Part shown: piece by piece, positions 41,092 to 50,701 of the stretch
Layout: every line of letters begins with the position of its first letter
Position numbering within the stretch: the first letter of the stretch is position 1
Virus record (IMG/VR): IMGVR_UViG_3300021399_000098
DNA: 64,000 nucleotides
Source of the DNA: a virus
Lineage: Duplodnaviria > Caudoviricetes
Direction: 5' to 3' (one strand)
Program-made: the position numbers and the translations under genes
Notes under the pieces: model-generated
The model's input: only the letters and a program-made list of their open reading frames with translations
Told to the model about the DNA's origin: nothing
The model's database searches: none

Positions 41092-43422
41092 CTAAATAGC
41101 ACCTTTTATATTGTTTACTTCAAACAATAAACCAAGTTTCTCATCATAAACTGCCGAATGAAGCAATAATGGAGACTCTTCATGTTTAGCAATTATAATC
41201 CAATTATTCATATTTAATTCATGGCCATTTCTCATACCATATTTATATTTGTATATATTTTCTGGTAACACCTCTTTAAAATAGTTAATATGGGTTTTAA
41301 TAGCATCATACTTTGTTTCACTATCATTTTCTATTTTATAAGACGGTATTTGTATGTTTCCACTAATGCTGCCATCACTTTTTTTTGCTCTAGCAAAAAT
41401 ATCTTCACTAACGCCCCTAAATCCAAGTCTAGATGATATTACTTTCGAATTTTTCTTTTTACTCGTTCTACGCGGTTTCATACTAGAATAAGATGCAGAT
41501 GATTCAATAAACAAACACTTCCAATACTTTTTAAACAGCCCTCTATTTTTATCACAAAATTCTGAATACAAATTATAAAAATCTTCTTTAGTTAATAATC
41601 TACCATTATAACCCTTTAAAAAATTACACCAAGCATAATATATTTTGATTCCTTCTTCACATTCATAAAATGCTTCAATAAACTTATTCGTTGATTTATT
41701 ATTTACAATAATACAGTTAAGTATCACTTCGGAATCATACTCATTAAATCTATTACCTCTACCTAACCTTTGTATTGTATTTTCTGGTGAAACAACCTCA
41801 TCATTTATTTCTATTGCAGAAATATCACAACCAGTTCCAATAATAGAAGTACCAAAAACTGTTTTTCTATCATTCAAATCGCTGTTTTTTGACCTATTTT
41901 CAAACACCTCATTTAATAGTCTTTCACTATCTTCTAACGTAAAATAAGCATGTAACAATATAGTGTTTTCATAGTTTCCATATTTATTACAAAATACTTG
42001 AGAATTTTTTACAGTATTGAAAATAGATATTGAATTATCATTTACATCAATTTTACTAATATCATCAATCTCTTTTACATTAATACGTATTTTCTTATCT
42101 TTATCATACACACCAAAATCTATAAATTTAACATTATCTCCCCAAAACATATTATGATATAATGGTGGTGTTGCTGATAGTAAAAGTGTTCTAGAATTAG
42201 TAACTCTAAATCTAGCACCGCACATTGATATAAAACTTGAAAACATTGGCTTTGAATTTGTATAATTTTGGAATTCATCAAACACAACATCACAAGTTAA
42301 CGTATTTAATAATTGATGTGCAGCACCATTCTTAACGTTCATACCTAGAAAACTATCTATGACAGAAACAATAATGTCTGAATTTTCATCACCTTCTTTA
42401 TAATCGCCACCAACTAAAAGGGCGATGGAAATATCATCTTGCCGATTAATAATAGCGACAATTTTATTTAATTCTCTAAAAGAGTTTTCTGCAATACTAA
42501 TAGTCGGTGTTACCCAAAACAGCTTTCTATTACTTTGAGTCCACCATCTGAATCCAACAAACGTTTTTCCAAAACCAGTGCTAGCCTTCAAAATTACATT
42601 TTCGTAACTAGATATTTCGGTAACAAGTTTTTCTTGCTTTTCCAATCTTACTTTGTCAAAACTTTCAATGTTTCTAAAATCAATGCCATTTATAGCTTCT
42701 TTAATACTTGAACACCCATAGCTATCAATTATATTATCCATAAATTTAATATCGTTAGATACAAACTTATCAATGTCTTTGTAAAATTTAGATACCATTC
42801 TGTCTGAATAGATTAATATTGCTCTCATAAGCAAAGACATAATTAATCTATCCATACTATCTACATCTAAGTCTCTAACTTTTGGGTACATTGTAACATT
42901 TGAAACTGTTATTTCACTTGATTCATTTTCAATTAATCCAACATCAATTCCGTCCTCTTTTAAAATGGCAGCAAAGAAAAGAAACATTTCTTTTGCATTA
43001 CCAATATCATTTTTAATCTTATAACATATATCATCTACTGATAAATCACCATCTACTTCTAATACATGGTGATATAAAATGGTTCTTTTTTCATCATCAC
43101 TAAGATTAGTATACTTATTCAAAAATGCCCATGTCATAACATCATGAGTTAACTCTAGACTATCTGAATCATCACTATTTGTTGAATTAGTTAGGCTTTT
43201 TTGGAAAGCCTCTGCTACCTTTAACAAATCATGACAAATACAAACCTTGGCAATAGATTTTCTTAGTTTCTCGTTAGAATACTTAAGACTCCATAAAGCA
43301 TCCTTCTTGATAATTCTATCAAAACACCTTAATCCAAAATTTTTGGTTGCTATTGAATGGTCGATAACTGTTGTCCCACCATTATTGAGACTCTTTGCTT
43401 TAAAAACGTTTAAATCTGTCAT
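41092..43422 (-). CDS. cas3: CRISPR-associated HD nuclease-helicase Cas3, no Cas2 fusion
   Basis: HD domain DHS, CHDLLK, HDV, LYHH, IYSDR. SF2 helicase ASTGFGKT, FDEFQ, LSATP, FNTV, LHA, QRLGRGNR. Adjacent to the CRISPR array. Confidence 0.92.
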   Translation of the reverse strand: MTDLNVFKAKSLNNGGTTVIDHSIATKNFGLRCFDRIIKKDALWSLKYSNEKLRKSIAKVCICHDLLKVAEAFQKSLTNSTNSDDSDSLELTHDVMTWAFLNKYTNLSDDEKRTILYHHVLEVDGDLSVDDICYKIKNDIGNAKEMFLFFAAILKEDGIDVGLIENESSEITVSNVTMYPKVRDLDVDSMDRLIMSLLMRAILIYSDRMVSKFYKDIDKFVSNDIKFMDNIIDSYGCSSIKEAINGIDFRNIESFDKVRLEKQEKLVTEISSYENVILKASTGFGKTFVGFRWWTQSNRKLFWVTPTISIAENSFRELNKIVAIINRQDDISIALLVGGDYKEGDENSDIIVSVIDSFLGMNVKNGAAHQLLNTLTCDVVFDEFQNYTNSKPMFSSFISMCGARFRVTNSRTLLLSATPPLYHNMFWGDNVKFIDFGVYDKDKKIRINVKEIDDISKIDVNDNSISIFNTVKNSQVFCNKYGNYENTILLHAYFTLEDSERLLNEVFENRSKNSDLNDRKTVFGTSIIGTGCDISAIEINDEVVSPENTIQRLGRGNRFNEYDSEVILNCIIVNNKSTNKFIEAFYECEEGIKIYYAWCNFLKGYNGRLLTKEDFYNLYSEFCDKNRGLFKKYWKCLFIESSASYSSMKPRRTSKKKNSKVISSRLGFRGVSEDIFARAKKSDGSISGNIQIPSYKIENDSETKYDAIKTHINYFKEVLPENIYKYKYGMRNGHELNMNNWIIIAKHEESPLLLHSAVYDEKLGLLFEVNNIKGAI

Positions 43423-43451
43423 ATTTTATATATATATATTTAATTATACTG

Positions 43452-43481
43452 CAAATGTACGAATAAAAATTAAATTATAAA
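43452..43481 (-). promoter_or_regulatory. Probable dedicated cas3 promoter between the array and cas3
   Basis: Minus strand -7 box TACATTTG at 43452-43459. The -33 box is imperfect (TTTA). Confidence 0.6.
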
Positions 43482-43503
43482 AGTAATGTTCTAATTTTTA
43501 ACA

Positions 43504-44392
43504 CTTTTTATTACATTAAGTTTTAACACTAAAAACACCAAGCCCATCTGTAGGATTGTTGGCTATTTGTTGTCATTACACTAAGTTTTAACACTAAAAA
43601 CATCAAACATCATGTTAATACGCTGTGTGCAATAGTTGTCATTACTCCAAGTTTTAACACTAAAAACACATAAGTTATATTCCTTAAATCGATAAAATTA
43701 TTGTCATTACATTAAGTTTTTATACTAAAAAACATTTGACCCATTCTTCTTGATAAAAATAAAGTGTTTGTCATTACATTAAGTTTTTATACTAAAAACG
43801 CCTTAATAACGATGTTCTTTGCCGCATAACGGTTGTCATTACACTAAGTTTTCATACTAAAAACACAACGCACTGATATTGATAAAGTGTATATCTAGTT
43901 GTCATTACATTAAGTTTCAATAAAAACACTTTGAGTTTTAAAGATGCTCATTATATATTTATTGTCATTACATTAGGTTTCCATACTAAAAACACCATAT
44001 AAAACGGTGAACATAAAACAACGCAAATTGTCATTACACTAAGTTTTCATACTAAAAACACCATACAGTGCAGCACACTTTGTTGTCTCTTCGTTGTCAT
44101 TACACTAAGTTTTTATACTAAAAACGCCCAAAGATTCAGCACGAACATGTGCATTATGGTTGTCATTACACTAAGTTTTCATACTAAAAACACCGAATCT
44201 CCTATCATCGTGTAACCGCATACAGTTGTCATTACACTAAGTTTTTATACTAAAAACACCTTCAGCAGAATGTGATTCAACTTCAGCAATGTTGTCATTA
44301 CACTAAGTTTTTATACTAAAAACACCTCCTAGAGCTTTTGCCTCATTGCTACGTGCGTTGTCATTACACTAAGTTTTCATACTAAAAACACC
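43504..44392 (-). CRISPR. CRISPR array: 14 repeats (36 nt), 13 spacers (29-30 nt)
   Basis: Plus-strand consensus GTTGTCATTACACTAAGTTTT(T/C)ATACTAAAAACACC. Repeat starts at 43504, 43569, 43635, 43700, 43767, 43832, 43898 (33 nt), 43961, 44027, 44093, 44159, 44225, 44291, 44357. Period ~66 nt. Degeneration increases leftward. The minus strand ends ATGACAAC. Confidence 0.98.
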
Positions 44393-44436
44393 TAATAACT
44401 CATAACAGTCTATATTATAAGTTATTAGACGATAAA

Positions 44437-45405
44437 TCACTCAGAAATTTTGGTAAATTCTTCTTTCCAATCAAACATTGGTGGTAATTTTCCTATTCCT
44501 AAAATCTTAACAACCCCACCATCCATAATGGTTGGCATTCTTCCATACTGTCTAAGTTCTTCTATCAGATTTTCATTTTCAATCTCAACTATAATTCTAC
44601 CATTATAAGTTACCTTTTTACTTTTAATGCCATGTCTTTCTAGAATTGGGCATTTTGAGGAACAATCACAATTATGAGAAGTCGTTGTATTCTTAATGTT
44701 TCCATTGAACACTGCTTCATACCATCCTTGTGATGAAATTATTTTTAATCTATCGCCATATTCTTTCTTGAAAGATTTCATTTCATCGCTATCCACATAC
44801 TTTTTAACTTCAACTAGGAATTCTGGAAAAGAGTATTTCTTAATGACATCTTCACAGCCAAACAACTTATTAAAAAAATCTTTTACAATCTCAAATAAAA
44901 GTTCATCACCATTCTTTTTTCTCTCATTCGATTTAACAAATGATGGATAATTAAACCATTTAGGTTTAAACTGTGCTTTAAAACTCTCCCACGTAAAATT
45001 ACCTTGATATTTTTCGCCACCAACAATTGTGGTAACTTTTCTATTTGAGTCAAAATTTGCCTTTTGGGACCAAAATGTGGTGGTTAAAAATCTTTTATCA
45101 CCTTTCTTTGTTATGTAGAAATATTGATTATCATATTTAACATAACTATGATTTAATGCCAAGTCATAAATCTCTTCATTCCTTGTAAAGATACTTTTCC
45201 TCATACTAGGAACTGGAGGGTATCCAAACAAATAATGAAGCATATTGCTAATATGATTAACCTTTAATGGGTTATTCAAGTCCACCTCATATGAGGTGGA
45301 CTTGTAAATTGAATTTTCATCCCTTCTATAGTCTGTTGATTTACTATTTGACTTGCTATCCACCATTAAATCAGCAGATTTAAATTCTAAATATAAATAA
45401 TACAT
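44437..45405 (-). CDS. cas5: Cas5-family RAMP with a large helical insertion (Cas5fv / I-F2-like)
   Basis: N-terminal strand YLYLEF; ISNMLHYLFG helix; central helical region; C-terminal YNGRIIVEI...PTIMDGGVVKILGI. Size (322 aa) and layout resemble Cas5fv as recalled. Lies between cas7 and the array. Confidence 0.7.
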   Translation of the reverse strand: MYYLYLEFKSADLMVDSKSNSKSTDYRRDENSIYKSTSYEVDLNNPLKVNHISNMLHYLFGYPPVPSMRKSIFTRNEEIYDLALNHSYVKYDNQYFYITKKGDKRFLTTTFWSQKANFDSNRKVTTIVGGEKYQGNFTWESFKAQFKPKWFNYPSFVKSNERKKNGDELLFEIVKDFFNKLFGCEDVIKKYSFPEFLVEVKKYVDSDEMKSFKKEYGDRLKIISSQGWYEAVFNGNIKNTTTSHNCDCSSKCPILERHGIKSKKVTYNGRIIVEIENENLIEELRQYGRMPTIMDGGVVKILGIGKLPPMFDWKEEFTKISE

Positions 45406-45407
45406 AA

Positions 45408-46484
45408 CTAAATACTCTCCGCAATACTTAAATCATCCTCTTCTTCTTTACTACTTTTTTTTGTTTTTTTGTTGGCTTTTTCCAACTTTTGCTCTTCATT
45501 CAATTTTACAATTTCTTGTATGTTCTTTTCTTGAGCCTTTTTATACTCTTCAATATATGTAGAATCCGCAACTTTATAAAAACAATCAATTTTGCTAAGA
45601 TTCATATTTTCAATATCATCAATTGAACGTATATTAATCCATTCATTCTCATAATCCAAGCTAACTAAATCATCACATAACTGAATTTTAAGCGATGTTG
45701 TCTTCATACTGCCCATTCTACCATGAGCTTCAACACGAAGCATACTAATCAAAGTATTTTTAAGTATACGCTCAATAACTTCATTGTTAAGAAGTATTCC
45801 ATATTCTGGATGAACACTTCTATTTGCTAAAAAATAACCTACTGTTGGATTTGACAAATCACCAAACTCTTGATTTAAAAACTCTTTAAATTTACCACTG
45901 CTTACCCAATCTGGTAGAACATACATTCTATCATTTTTTTCACTAGCTGATAAGAATTGAATTTCACACATATCTATGTTTCCCTCTGCTTCCCATACAG
46001 TCTTACCAAGAGTCTCCACATTGAACATAGATGTTGAAGCTCTTTTACCAGTTGTTGGGTCTACAACATTTGACGTTTGAACAGTAAACTGTGGTTTTGC
46101 GTCATTTACTAATGAAGCATCAGTAATGTTAAAACTACTTTTTTTGTGCAAGTTAATACCTTTTTTAAGAAGTAAAGTAGTTCCTCTACATAAAGTCTCC
46201 CACCTTGCAAGTTCATGCATTGTTATGTTTTCATTAATCGCATCATATGGAGAAACTTGATTACCAAATATATAATACCTCAACTTGTTTTTATCAATTT
46301 TAGGAACAGCCATTAATTTTTCACCGTCATTTTGATAATAATTTTTTTTCATGACAAGAGTATTATCATTAAACTTTCCATGACAACTATAAAGCTCGTT
46401 TAAGATACCAAGCTGATTTTCAAGGGAATCATAATTTACACAACCCTCTCCTTCAAAAATAATTTTAAATTTAATTGACCTCAT
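45408..46484 (-). CDS. cas7: Cas7 backbone, I-F2 (Cas7fv)-like
   Basis: SIKFKIIFEGEGCVNY, IDKNKLRYYIF, LCRG, KKSSFNITD, RASTSMFNVETLGKTVWEAEGNIDMCEIQFLS...DR and EYGILLNNE are colinear with motifs recalled from Shewanella Cas7fv. Confidence 0.82.
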   Translation of the reverse strand: MRSIKFKIIFEGEGCVNYDSLENQLGILNELYSCHGKFNDNTLVMKKNYYQNDGEKLMAVPKIDKNKLRYYIFGNQVSPYDAINENITMHELARWETLCRGTTLLLKKGINLHKKSSFNITDASLVNDAKPQFTVQTSNVVDPTTGKRASTSMFNVETLGKTVWEAEGNIDMCEIQFLSASEKNDRMYVLPDWVSSGKFKEFLNQEFGDLSNPTVGYFLANRSVHPEYGILLNNEVIERILKNTLISMLRVEAHGRMGSMKTTSLKIQLCDDLVSLDYENEWINIRSIDDIENMNLSKIDCFYKVADSTYIEEYKKAQEKNIQEIVKLNEEQKLEKANKKTKKSSKEEEDDLSIAESI

Positions 46485-46494
46485 ATTTTTTATT

Positions 46495-47160
46495 TTAAAT
46501 TAATTTAACAGAACCAAAACCAAAACCAGTTGATGAACCTAATCCTAGCTCATATATAAGTTTTCTTGCTTTTTTATTTCCTTTAACAAGTAACATCACT
46601 TGTGAACATATATTTTTACACCCATTTATATTATAAAAACGTATTTTAGAATTTTCTGGATGAAATAATTCAAAATCCAAAGTATTAGCTATTCTTTCAC
46701 TTAAACCATTATGTATCAATTTTTTAATTGACTTTTCTCTTAAATGAGGAACAAATTCATCATCTTCAAATGTTATGAATTTATCTTTAGTTTGTAACCT
46801 TATTGGACTAGTTGTACGAATTATATCGTATTCAGAATGAACATTAAATTCAGATAACTCAAATTTTCTAAATTTTAAATTTGAAATGTATAACTCATTT
46901 CTATTATATGTAAGACTTAAAACTATTTTATCAATAAACTCATTATCACATGACGAAATAGTTAAAAACGCCCCATCAACAAAAATCACATTACCATCTA
47001 GATATATCCCATTCTGTAAACGTGAAACACTATATTTAGAAAACTTCCCATGATAAGGATTATTTTCTCCCAAAAGTTTATTCACAAATCCATTAACTTT
47101 TTTGTAAGAAATGTTAACGTCAAATTCATCTTTTCCATCAAAAAATATTTTTATAATCAT
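46495..47160 (-). CDS. cas6: CRISPR-associated endoribonuclease Cas6 (generic I-B/III-like, not Cas6f/Csy4)
   Basis: YSVSRL, LTISS, TTSPIRL and the C-terminal G-rich loop YELGLGSSTGFGFG (GhGxxxxxGhG). Confidence 0.9.
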   Translation of the reverse strand: MIIKIFFDGKDEFDVNISYKKVNGFVNKLLGENNPYHGKFSKYSVSRLQNGIYLDGNVIFVDGAFLTISSCDNEFIDKIVLSLTYNRNELYISNLKFRKFELSEFNVHSEYDIIRTTSPIRLQTKDKFITFEDDEFVPHLREKSIKKLIHNGLSERIANTLDFELFHPENSKIRFYNINGCKNICSQVMLLVKGNKKARKLIYELGLGSSTGFGFGSVKLI

Positions 47161-47186
47161 ATAATTTTAATTTAATTATTATGATA

Positions 47187-47218
47187 CAAATATATATAAA
47201 AAAAATTGGATTAACAAA
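47187..47218 (-). promoter_or_regulatory. Bacteroidota-type promoter for cas6-cas7-cas5 (and possibly the array)
   Basis: Minus strand TTTG-N20-TATATTTG, 26 nt upstream of the cas6 ATG. Confidence 0.8.
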
Positions 47219-47243
47219 ATAATCAACCCAATTTTAACACTAA

Positions 47244-47669
47244 TTAACTATTTGTTACTTTTTCTTCTTTTTCTGTAAAATACTCCCTAAAATTATTTGT
47301 TCTATAATCAAACATTTCGTTTGTTAATATTACATCTTCTTTATTTTCTTCACCTTCCATATTAGCCATCATAAGCAACTCATCAATATCTTCATCTGTG
47401 ACAAACTTTCTATCAAGCTTATCACAAATTTTTAGCATACACACACCCCCTCCGTGTGAAAAACGACCTTCAAGTTTTGTTATCTCTAAATCATCATCCG
47501 TAGAATCTTCCTTATCTGAACGAAGAGACAAAACACCAACCGAACTATCGCTATCTTTATCTGTAATTATAAATTGGTAGTATGATTCTCCATTATTAAT
47601 GACTTCAAAGCCGTTTTCTTTTAAATCCCTAATCTTTACTGGAATGTTTAAAATATAAGTAACACTCAT
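47244..47669 (-). CDS. Hypothetical acidic protein (141 aa)
   Basis: ORF only. Confidence 0.7.
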   Translation of the reverse strand: MSVTYILNIPVKIRDLKENGFEVINNGESYYQFIITDKDSDSSVGVLSLRSDKEDSTDDDLEITKLEGRFSHGGGVCMLKICDKLDRKFVTDEDIDELLMMANMEGEENKEDVILTNEMFDYRTNNFREYFTEKEEKVTNS

Positions 47670-47723: not shown

Positions 47724-48296
47724 TTATTTATTTTTTCTCATTTCAGCAATAGGTCTAAGTATATCTTGAAATCCATCTATCTTACTACCTATATATTCTT
47801 TACAATAGCTTACTCTCGTAAGCCTATTCCTATATTTTTGGTTGTCAGCAGATTTCTTGTCTCTACCCTTTCCGTCAAACACAGTACCTCTAACATTTGG
47901 ATTCCTTGAAAGTGCCTCTCCAAACTTTCTATGCGCTGTTTTTATATACAGCTTATAATCATGCTCATCATCTGATAGTGACTTAACTATGCCACCAACG
48001 AAATTGAATATAATCGTGCTAAGTCCTAGTCCTTGATAGTCTTCAAGTATAACAATTCTACTTATAGAACAACCATAAGGTATTCCTTTTCTAGGCGTGT
48101 TAAGAATTCCAACGAATCCGACTGGAACACCATCCCATTCAAATAACAAACATTTACAAGACTTATTAATTTCAGCAGTCAAATAATGGCATTTTGAAAA
48201 TCCTAAGCTTTTCCACACACTAGGTTCTACTCTTCTAACAGTTAATTGAATGTTTGGTCTTTGTCCTTTAGAATGGTCAATCTTTATTACTTTCAT
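47724..48296 (-). CDS. GNAT-fold acetyltransferase of the phage ABC-ATPase-associated family
   Basis: FSKCHYL; ISRIVILEDYQGLGLS acetyl-CoA motif; YIKTAH. Likely start ATG 48296 (MKVIKIDH). Confidence 0.78.
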   Translation of the reverse strand: MKVIKIDHSKGQRPNIQLTVRRVEPSVWKSLGFSKCHYLTAEINKSCKCLLFEWDGVPVGFVGILNTPRKGIPYGCSISRIVILEDYQGLGLSTIIFNFVGGIVKSLSDDEHDYKLYIKTAHRKFGEALSRNPNVRGTVFDGKGRDKKSADNQKYRNRLTRVSYCKEYIGSKIDGFQDILRPIAEMRKNK

Positions 48297-49380
48297 TCGA
48301 GTTTTTTTTATTACAATTATTTTCATGATACTTAAATGTGTAACCGTGATGTTGTTTAAATTTACCTTTTAAACACATTCTAACACATTTTAAATCAAAA
48401 TTCATTTTCAAACACATTTGAGATATTGATGAATAAGTTTCTATAAAATTTCCATCTAAATCTAATAAATCAACTCTATGTGACGTTTTGCTGTGTGTAT
48501 TTTCAGATAGCATGTTTTCAGAATGAGATACCCATTCTAAATTTTCAACTTTATTATTTTTAGTATTAGAATCCTTATGATTAACTTCTGTGCTCCCATT
48601 CAAATTTGGTATAAAAGTTTGTGCAACAAGTCTATGGACAAAATACTGCTTCCCATTCACGAATACCCTCATATATCCCAAAGTATTATCACTTCCATAA
48701 GTAATTCTTTCTCGTCCTCTCCATTGCATTTTAACTCTTCCTAAATCACTTATTTCAATATTCAAAAAAGGATGTTTTTTAAAAATTTCCCCATACAGTT
48801 CTTTGTCTTTAACATATTCCCACTTATATCCACAAGCACTTTTTGCTTCACCTCTGCAAGCTCTTCTTATATTTTCGTATGGACGTTTGTAATTATTAAT
48901 ACCCAATTCTTTTACTGCTTCTTTTGTTGAATCAAATACTCCAACAACGTTATTAAAAAAATCAGTACATTTAACCTTTATTTTTCTATTATTTGTTTTA
49001 TTCGGTTTCCTTTTATTTCTTGAATTAATATTGTTGGCATTATCTTTTTGAGATAGGTATCTCAAATTTGAAAGGTAATTATTTAAAGGATTTGAATCTA
49101 TATGGTCTACTGTTAGTTCTTTTTTAATACCGTAAAAACATTCACAAATAAATCTATGCACAAGCATAATATATCTTTTACCGCATTTGTATAGTGATAC
49201 AATTAATCTACCATTTTGTATTGGCACTTGTTTTCTAATCTTATTAGTTTTTGTTCTTCTAATTTTTCCTAAATTAGAACCTTCATATTCAGTAAAAAAT
49301 GGATGCTGTCTCCATATTTCGGTAAAACCATTTATTTTCACACTTTCTCCTTTTTTATGATTAATTTGAATTGTTTTCAC
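48277..49380 (-). mobile_element. HNH homing endonuclease with duplicated HNH-NUMOD1-like modules
   Basis: Two HNH sites: VHRFICECF...VDHIDSNPLNN...NL and VHRLVAQTF...VNHKDSNTKNN...NLEW. Each is followed by a NUMOD1-like segment (ACGYKWEY; HHGYTFKY). GTG start. Confidence 0.88.
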
Positions 49381-49990: not shown

Positions 49991-50701
49991 TTAATTGATT
50001 TTTATAGCATCGCTCAACACGTCATTTGGCATTACACTTTGATGTACCGAATAGTCCTTCCCATCCACATATTCCATCTTTTCCATTTCAACGTTTCCGT
50101 CTTCATCCTTATGGTTAAGATTGAACACATAGTCTGGCTGCAACCATTCAATAATGTCAAAATGACACGATGCAATTATTATCTTCAAATTGTTCTGTCT
50201 TATATATCTCTGCAATGCATAACTCATTGACTTTGCAACGTCTCTGTTCACAACCGATGTAAACTCATCCACATAGATTATTTGCCCCTTTCCAGTCTCG
50301 TAGATGGCTTTGCATAGGTCTAGCCTTGCTCTTTCACCATTTGATAATTCTTGAGGCTTACGAAGCCATGCAGGAACTGATGCAAGGCCAACTCCACATA
50401 GAAGGTCACATGCCTCTTCCTCTGTCAAATTGGGGAATTGGCTTATGACAGCCTTTTGATAATCATACTCTATAGGTTTAATATCACCTATTTCCCTTAA
50501 AATAGTGGATTTTCCGCTTCCACTCTTTCCACATATCAGCATTATATTCCATTCACTAGCATTCATTGCATCCATGTCTTCCTTTGATGGAATGGGAACT
50601 TCTGTCATCGTAAGTTCCTTATTCTGAATGTCATAGTTATCATATAGATACTGTGTGTAGTTATCATTTACGATTTTAGACTCTAATAGTATTTTTCCCA
50701 T
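49991..50701 (-). CDS. ABC-type ATPase (phage family usually fused to a GNAT domain)
   Basis: Walker A GKSGSGKST; signature LSNGERARL; Walker B YVDEFTS; H-loop ASCH; no transmembrane segments. Confidence 0.85.
   Translation of the reverse strand: MGKILLESKIVNDNYTQYLYDNYDIQNKELTMTEVPIPSKEDMDAMNASEWNIMLICGKSGSGKSTILREIGDIKPIEYDYQKAVISQFPNLTEEEACDLLCGVGLASVPAWLRKPQELSNGERARLDLCKAIYETGKGQIIYVDEFTSVVNRDVAKSMSYALQRYIRQNNLKIIIASCHFDIIEWLQPDYVFNLNHKDEDGNVEMEKMEYVDGKDYSVHQSVMPNDVLSDAIKIN

Follow-up and report, generated by a model that had tools for sequence, protein, structure and literature searches.

A compact type I CRISPR-Cas module without Cas8, related to type I-F2, on a phage of probable Bacteroidota host

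The stretch of viral DNA analysed here, referred to as the window, comprises 64,000 nucleotides (nt) of IMG/VR virus record IMGVR_UViG_3300021399_000098 (Duplodnaviria; Caudoviricetes). On its minus strand, at positions 41092 to 47160, lies a compact type I CRISPR-Cas system. In the order of transcription, and with protein lengths in amino acids (aa), the locus and its two putative promoter boxes are as follows.

47187..47194, minus strand: TAnnTTTG box at 34 nt before the cas6 start codon
46495..47160, minus strand: cas6, generic (I-B/III-like) Cas6 endoribonuclease, 221 aa
45408..46484, minus strand: cas7, Cas7fv-like backbone subunit, 358 aa
44437..45405, minus strand: cas5, enlarged Cas5 (assigned from its modelled fold), 322 aa; a helical insert spans about residues 139 to 250
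43504..44392, minus strand: CRISPR array, 14 repeats and 13 spacers, leader end beside cas5
43452..43459, minus strand: TAnnTTTG box at 37 nt before the cas3 start codon
41092..43422, minus strand: cas3, stand-alone HD nuclease-helicase, 776 aa, I-F2-like, without a Cas2 domain

The locus is tightly packed. Only 10 nt separate cas6 from cas7 and 2 nt separate cas7 from cas5, while the cas5 stop codon lies 44 nt from the first repeat and the last repeat 81 nt from the cas3 start, so that no room is left for a further gene. The 39 other open reading frames (ORFs) of the window were searched with PADLOC and Pfam, and none matched the Cas1, Cas2, Cas4 or Cas8 families; for Cas8, there was no match among all 43 window ORFs. 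A single weak match to type IV Cas11 was returned by PADLOC (E 6.8e-4), at about chance level for 39 proteins. The ORF concerned was not located, and it is none of the 14 ORFs that were scanned individually, which include every neighbour of the locus. Gene packing and family scans therefore both agreed with a preliminary description of this stretch, made from its letters only, which had proposed a four-gene type I module lacking Cas8, Cas11 and adaptation genes.

Comparison of the Cas7 and Cas3 proteins with known families pointed to type I-F2 (formerly I-Fv), for which Shewanella putrefaciens CN-32 provides the reference structures (PDB 5O6U, 5O7H and 9G44). A Cas7 profile built with 5 relatives matched Cas7fv chain 5o6u_C at E 3.6e-27 over residues 2 to 271. 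With PADLOC, the best profile was Cas7fv (9e-8), with Cas7f at 1.8e-5, and relatives of the protein carry the Pfam domain PF28157 (Cas7fv-like). The single sequence matched the NCBIfam Cas7fv family (NF040577) at E 3.3e-9 with 36.5 bits, which does not reach the equivalog cut-off of 200 bits. For Cas3, a profile of 6 relatives matched the I-F2 Cas3 chain 9g44_A over nearly its full length at E 2.4e-75, whereas every other solved Cas3 scored E 4.6e-18 or worse, and PADLOC returned Cas3fv at 1.7e-36. The HD residues H22, H64-D65, H93, H118-H119 and D207 are retained, as are helicase motifs I, II, III and VI, with GFGKT, DEFQ, SAT and QRxGR, and in six diverged Cas3 proteins neither the HD ligands nor motifs I, III and VI vary. 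Since the first conserved residue of the HD domain is already His22, this Cas3 is without a Cas2 domain.

The Cas6 protein was of a different kind. It matched NCBIfam TIGR01877 (cas_cas6) at E 1.1e-22 with 81.5 bits, above the cut-off of 58.65, Cas6b in PADLOC at E 4.5e-29, and the PDB Cas6 structure 5yi6 at E 3.4e-10, and it contains the Pfam domain Cas_Cas6_C. Its C-terminal glycine-rich loop reads GLGSSTGFGFG, and both this loop and His37 are invariant in 7 relatives. Neither the family searches nor the PDB search gave a match to Cas6f/Csy4. The earlier assignments of a Cas7fv-type Cas7, a generic or I-B-like Cas6 distinct from Cas6f, and a stand-alone Cas3 with HD and helicase motifs were thus all borne out by these comparisons.

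The 322-aa product of the gene following cas7 was more difficult to assign, as it gave no sequence match in Pfam, NCBIfam, PADLOC or the PDB sequences, and a 65-sequence profile of it returned nothing meaningful in the same four sources. Its structure was therefore modelled with AlphaFold (predicted local distance difference test [pLDDT], 88.6; predicted template modelling score, 0.75). The model has a RAMP core that is split (about residues 1 to 135 and 255 to 322) around a confidently modelled helical insert of about 110 residues. Foldseek returned only two significant matches to the model, 5o6u_F (E 3.7e-4) and 9g44_B (E 7.9e-4). Both are chains of the I-Fv/I-F2 Cascade other than Cas7 or Cas3 and were for that reason taken to be Cas5fv. 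When the model was aligned with 48,161 representative chains using VIA-align, 5o6u_F again ranked first, with an rmsd of 3.3 over 134 residues and a Z score of 8.6, a value that barely exceeds the typical best Z of unmatched models; the runners-up were all Cas5 subunits, from types I-E, I-B, I-A, I-C and I-F, at Z 5 to 6.6. Because Cas5fv was the best structural match and other Cas5 proteins came next, the 322-aa protein is, as modelled, a Cas5 and not a Cas8. The preliminary description had named it an enlarged Cas5 of Cas5fv layout, to be given up if the protein proved to be a Cas8 or to have a non-RAMP fold; the RAMP core, the Cas5 matches and the helical insert of the model all favour that assignment. 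The insert may be equivalent to the AH domain with which Cas5fv reads the protospacer-adjacent motif (PAM). A model of the complex between Cas7 and the Cas5-like protein scored 0.84, compared with 0.00 for the best of 3 controls, with at least 55% of contacts agreeing between runs and a partner pLDDT of at least 72. The corresponding mark was attained by 58 of 80 solved complexes and by 2 of 110 mismatched pairs. As an I-F2 Cascade structure has been solved, this pass may reflect likeness rather than proof.

The Cas5-like protein proved to have many relatives. In a library clustered at 50% identity, 205 cluster representatives of about 270 to 370 aa were found at E ≤0.001, and none of those returned with annotation was named or carried a Pfam domain. 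Thirteen other loci were inspected (L001, L003, L005, L006, L007, L008, L009/L010, L011, L013, L014, L023, L025 and L027). In all except L009/L010, a Cas7fv-like gene immediately precedes the Cas5-like gene, and where the contig extends far enough, a Cas6-like gene, an array and Cas3 are also present, in the order cas6-cas7-cas5-array-cas3 or cas7-cas5-cas6-array-cas3. The six arrays read across these loci have a period of 65 to 66 and 36-nt repeats that end in ...AATnACAAC or a near variant. No adaptation genes were found in the flanks read of the 13 loci, no extra conserved cas gene was found beside the module in the stretches read, and no Cas1 was found in the 330-kb viral contig of L008; a second contig of the family measures 351 kb. 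The family is widespread, phage-borne and distantly related to I-F2.

Two of the inspected loci departed from this arrangement. In L009 and L010 (8405 to 13528), an ORF of 196 aa occupies the cas7 position and the Cas3 of 670 aa has no HD-domain match on record, so that both loci look degraded. In L003 (7566 to 12764 of a 61-kb contig), a split Cas3 (HD, 169 aa; helicase, 605 aa) is followed by a Cas7fv-like gene, a gene for a protein of 214 aa and Cas6. Alignment of that protein with the Cas5-like family covers no more than the family's N-terminal two thirds (hhalign probability, 99.1); it could be either a shortened Cas5 or the product of a disrupted gene.

No Cas7 relative was found by tblastn in 50,697 GenBank phage records, and a contig scan for Cas5-like relatives, which depended on two peptide patterns, was empty. 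Nor was any published description of an I-F2-like phage lineage found in the full-text literature, the survey of Al-Shayeb et al. 2022 (Cell 185:4574) not being covered.

These related loci bear directly on the origin of the module. The preliminary description had viewed it as assembled from different subtypes, and in its strictest form this would make the locus a recent, one-off chimera, with Cas5 and Cas7 from I-F2, Cas6 and the repeat from type I-B or III, and Cas3 from a third source. It is true that I-F2 has another Cas6 and another repeat format and that Cas3 here is without the Cas2 fusion. However, Cas3 is itself specifically I-F2-like, with Cas3fv as the best PADLOC profile in the window, L007 and L008, which leaves only Cas6 and the repeat foreign to I-F2. 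Furthermore, this set of four genes, again with 36-nt repeats, is found in loci whose four proteins are only 22 to 45% identical, as expected of an old, coherent lineage, and any exchange of Cas6 and repeat must then have taken place at or near the root of this lineage and not in this phage. Recent assembly from several subtypes was therefore judged unlikely, and that part of the description was set aside. The pairwise identities of the four proteins across six loci were saturated near 30%, and rank correlations were uninformative. Relative to I-F2, Cas6 appears to have been exchanged together with the repeat, and the Cas2 fusion is missing; either state could be ancestral.

The array (43504 to 44392) consists of 14 repeats, with a 36-nt unit as previously reported, separated by spacers of 29 to 31 nt at a period of 65 to 67. 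The fold energy of the repeat was no better than that of shuffled sequences, and no stable hairpin was detected. Cleavage of the repeat is predicted to yield an 8-nt 5' handle, ATGACAAC. The terminal repeat at the cas3 end (43504 to 43539) is degenerate. At 43867 to 43960, one internal repeat is cut to about 33 nt with an altered middle, and the spacer preceding it is absent from L006, an IMG/VR contig of a sister phage whose Cas5 is 98% identical to that of the window. Between the cas5 stop codon and the first repeat (44389 to 44431, minus strand) there is an AT-rich hairpin of 19 pairs, which extends into the GGTG and T-run of the repeat; it could serve as an attenuator or as a processing signal for the array transcript.

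Comparison with the 16-repeat array of L006 provided evidence of spacer turnover. The two arrays have five older spacers in common, three of them with 1 to 3 base changes, while none of the spacers at the cas5 end (five in the window and six in L006) is shared. Since all of these differ and the degenerate repeat is found at the cas3 end, the leader end was placed beside cas5, with the array and the cas genes sharing one strand. The complete difference at the cas5 end also indicates spacer gain since the two phages split. The arrays differ mid-array and at the trailer end as well, and deletion or recombination has therefore also acted on them.

With no integrase in the locus, the acquisition machinery would have to come from another part of the phage genome or from the host, and it is the comparison of the window and L006 arrays that implies adaptation of the phage array in trans. 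Tentatively, the array may be extended by an integrase from outside the phage locus, the likeliest being the Cas1-Cas2 of a Bacteroidota host serving arrays of another type (class 2, with 36-nt repeats and 30-nt spacers); we regard this as possible rather than probable. Searches for host arrays of matching format did not add to it. A search of GTDB species genomes with the 20-nt 3' part of the repeat yielded a single chance match, and in the Joint Genome Institute (JGI) metagenomes the only array found with the 3' part was that of the sister phage, the rest being single matches. When 401 sampled genomes of Bacteroidota were searched with a pattern of the repeat format, only single matches appeared, as often as with the reversed pattern used as a control, and no CRISPR repeat family in Rfam was matched. 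A likeness to the Cas9 and Cas13b arrays of Bacteroidota could not be confirmed by these searches.

The surroundings of the module are those of a T4-like phage. Window genes of this kind encode a baseplate wedge gp25-like protein, a gp32-like protein, a UvsX-like recombinase, a DnaB-like helicase, NrdD, a gp13-like neck or adaptor protein and an HNH homing endonuclease. T4-like phage genes were found on both sides of the locus, consistent with the phage context first proposed for it. The immediate flanks are the gp13-like gene on one side and, on the other, a 141-aa ORF, a GNAT gene and the HNH homing endonuclease gene. When compared with the 93%-identical L014, where the order is ATPase, small ORF, GNAT and cas6, the window has two extra genes beside the module (47244 to 47669 and 48277 to 49380), namely, the 141-aa ORF, which belongs to no family, and the HNH/NUMOD homing endonuclease (367 aa). 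Near the GNAT gene, at 49991 to 50701, a 236-aa P-loop ATPase matches several profiles of defence ATPases, among them mad3 (3e-9) and AbiLi (2e-6).

The motif TAnnTTTG occurs 23 to 37 nt before the start codon of nine window genes, including cas6 and cas3, and within 80 nt of 11 of 44 genes, compared with about two expected. We take this motif to be the -7 box of Bacteroidota promoters, following the consensus for Bacteroides and Flavobacterium. The regions upstream of cas3 (43462 to 43510) and cas6 (47198 to 47246) are about 70% alike over 49 to 80 nt, with a box in each. This likeness suggests that cas6 and cas3 may be driven by two promoters of one class. In L006, the promoter-like segment of roughly 60 nt before cas6 is missing, and cas6 directly follows the upstream ORF. 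A repeat-like element upstream of cas6 (4 of 500 shuffles) was considered and rejected, being better explained as a copy of the region containing the array trailer and the cas3 promoter.

The nearest isolate, identified through the UvsX-like protein at 33% identity, is a 160-kb Flavobacterium myovirus. Together with the TAnnTTTG boxes, this indirectly supports the Bacteroidota half of the earlier designation "Bacteroidota jumbo phage", and the host is probably a member of that phylum. The jumbo half is drawn from the extent of the sequenced piece, which reaches at least 20.7 kb before the window and at least 136.6 kb beyond it and gives a genome of at least about 220 kb.

Taken together, the data make it likely that the locus is a phage-encoded, interference-only type I module that belongs to an old, phage-borne lineage related to I-F2. 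The module is apparently intact, and its DNA-targeting function is inferred from homology. Several observations weigh against this reading. Besides the modest Z score of the Cas5 model, the alignment with Cas5fv spans the RAMP core alone (134 of 322 residues), with the helical insert outside it. Motif II of Cas3 is DEFQ here and in the 63%-identical Cas3 of L001 (13006 to 15309), and DEFH in four more distant relatives. The 1 to 3 base changes in the old shared spacers suggest weak selection on them. The survey that gave no cas1, cas2 or cas8 extended over the 64 kb of the window, out of at least about 220 kb for the genome as a whole. Finally, searches in GenBank phages, IMG/VR and JGI metagenomes yielded no protospacer from which a target or PAM could be derived. 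Specifically, in 50,697 GenBank phage records blastn with the array returned chance-level matches only, five spacers searched with any base allowed at every sixth position matched nothing in IMG/VR, and one spacer matched nothing in the JGI metagenomes; there was also no self-target within the window or the fetched loci.

Some of these observations could be accommodated by a module that is non-degradative, binding its targets for repression, or that is decaying and drifting towards loss. Such a module would be in keeping with the DEFQ motif, the point changes in old spacers, the lack of targets, and the L009 and L010 loci, which are without an intact cas7 and whose 670-aa Cas3 is without an HD match on record. 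On the other hand, six diverged Cas3 proteins show no variation in the HD ligands or in helicase motifs I, III and VI, the reading frames are intact and tightly packed, and Cas5 and its counterpart in the sister phage share 98% identity despite the turnover of the array. This explanation was accordingly given a slightly lower probability than the recent chimera. Lower still was the probability given to an incomplete system, in which the 322-aa protein would be insufficient and Cas8 or Cas11 would be required from elsewhere in the phage or the host. The 64-kb span of the gene survey leaves space for this, as do the weak Cas11 match on one window ORF and the conjectural equivalence of the insert with the AH domain. 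Nevertheless, the 13 related loci have no additional conserved cas gene beside the module in the stretches read, the Cas11 match is near chance and lies outside the neighbours scanned singly, and I-F2 itself operates without Cas8 or Cas11 (PMC12956352, PMC4937334).

For an interference-only module of the I-F2-related lineage, the following course of events can be proposed. Transcription would start from the Bacteroidota-type promoter upstream of cas6 and proceed through cas6, cas7, cas5 and the array, with a second promoter of this type driving cas3. The generic Cas6 would cleave the weakly structured 36-nt repeats to leave the predicted 8-nt 5' handle and would then either remain on the 3' part of the repeat or release it. 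The enlarged Cas5 would cap the 5' handle, and about five Cas7fv-like subunits would cover the 30-nt guide, giving a Cascade without a large or a small subunit. As in I-F2, PAM reading and duplex opening would fall to the helical insert of Cas5. The stand-alone HD-helicase Cas3 would then be recruited by a surface of Cas5 and Cas7 rather than by Cas8, and would degrade the displaced strand. New spacers would enter at the cas5-proximal end by means of an integrase that the locus does not encode. The system probably serves the phage against rival phages, other mobile elements or the host.

Type I-F2 is the smallest known type I effector, known so far from proteobacterial plasmids and islands, and is being engineered for use in human cells (PMC11343773). 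The present locus represents a distant relative of this Cas8-less design that is common on large phages, as judged from the 205 Cas5-like clusters, and that differs from I-F2 in its processing enzyme, repeat format and Cas3 layout. It offers a second natural test of how a PAM is read and Cas3 recruited without Cas8, and with four genes totalling about 5.0 kb and an unfused Cas3, it is of a convenient size for tool building. With an array that turns over in the absence of a Cas1-Cas2 in the phage locus, it becomes directly testable who writes the CRISPR memories of phages. If adaptation by host Cas1-Cas2 in trans is true, the virus would be supplying its Cas8-less type I effector by way of the host's adaptation module; combined with a wide spread on huge phages, this would define a subtype related to I-F2, as yet without a name, in which adaptation crosses CRISPR types between host and virus.

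CRISPR systems on phages have been described before. Vibrio phage ICP1 carries a compact type I-F system which, in contrast to the module described here, has a reduced Cas8f (Csy1), Cas6f, a Cas2/3 fusion, Cas1 and 28-nt repeats (PMC10161043). Phage CRISPR systems without adaptation genes are also a known pattern, for which complementation by the host has been proposed (PMC7162821). The type I-C variant of huge phages described in the same work resembles the present locus in being carried on large phages without Cas1, Cas2 or Cas4 (here, within the 64-kb window), but it is I-C-like, with Cas5d, no Cas6 and another helicase replacing Cas3, whereas the module reported here is I-F2-like with a true HD-Cas3. 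Type I-B shares the Cas6b-kind Cas6 (PADLOC, 4.5e-29), the unstructured repeats and the stand-alone Cas3; however, Cas8b is absent here, and Cas7 and Cas5 match no I-B profile.

The closest known system is I-F2, defined by Cas5fv, Cas7fv, Cas6f, a Cas2-3 fusion, Cas1, 27- to 28-nt repeats and 32-nt spacers, located on plasmids and islands and functional without Cas8 or Cas11 (PMC12956352, PMC4937334). Shared with it are the absence of Cas8 and Cas11, with a Cascade of Cas5, Cas7 and Cas6 only (predicted here from the genes), a homologous Cas7 (E 3.6e-27), a Cas3 homologous over its whole length (E 2.4e-75), and a Cas5 that is enlarged in both systems and has Cas5fv as its best structural match. 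The differences are that Cas6 here is generic or I-B-like instead of Cas6f; that the repeats are weakly structured and 36 nt long with spacers of about 30 nt, in place of 27- to 28-nt hairpin repeats with 32-nt spacers; that Cas3 is unfused and Cas1 absent, where I-F2 has a Cas2-Cas3 fusion and an adjacent Cas1; that Cas7 lies far under the NCBIfam Cas7fv equivalog cut-off (36.5 versus 200 bits); that Cas5 has no detectable sequence similarity to Cas5fv; and that the locus is found on genomes of lytic-type phages instead of proteobacterial plasmids or islands. Because it departs from I-F2 in Cas6f, in the Cas2 fusion and Cas1, in the repeat format and in the Cas7fv equivalog score, the locus is not a strict member of that subtype, although, as far as its genes indicate, it would work in the manner of I-F2.

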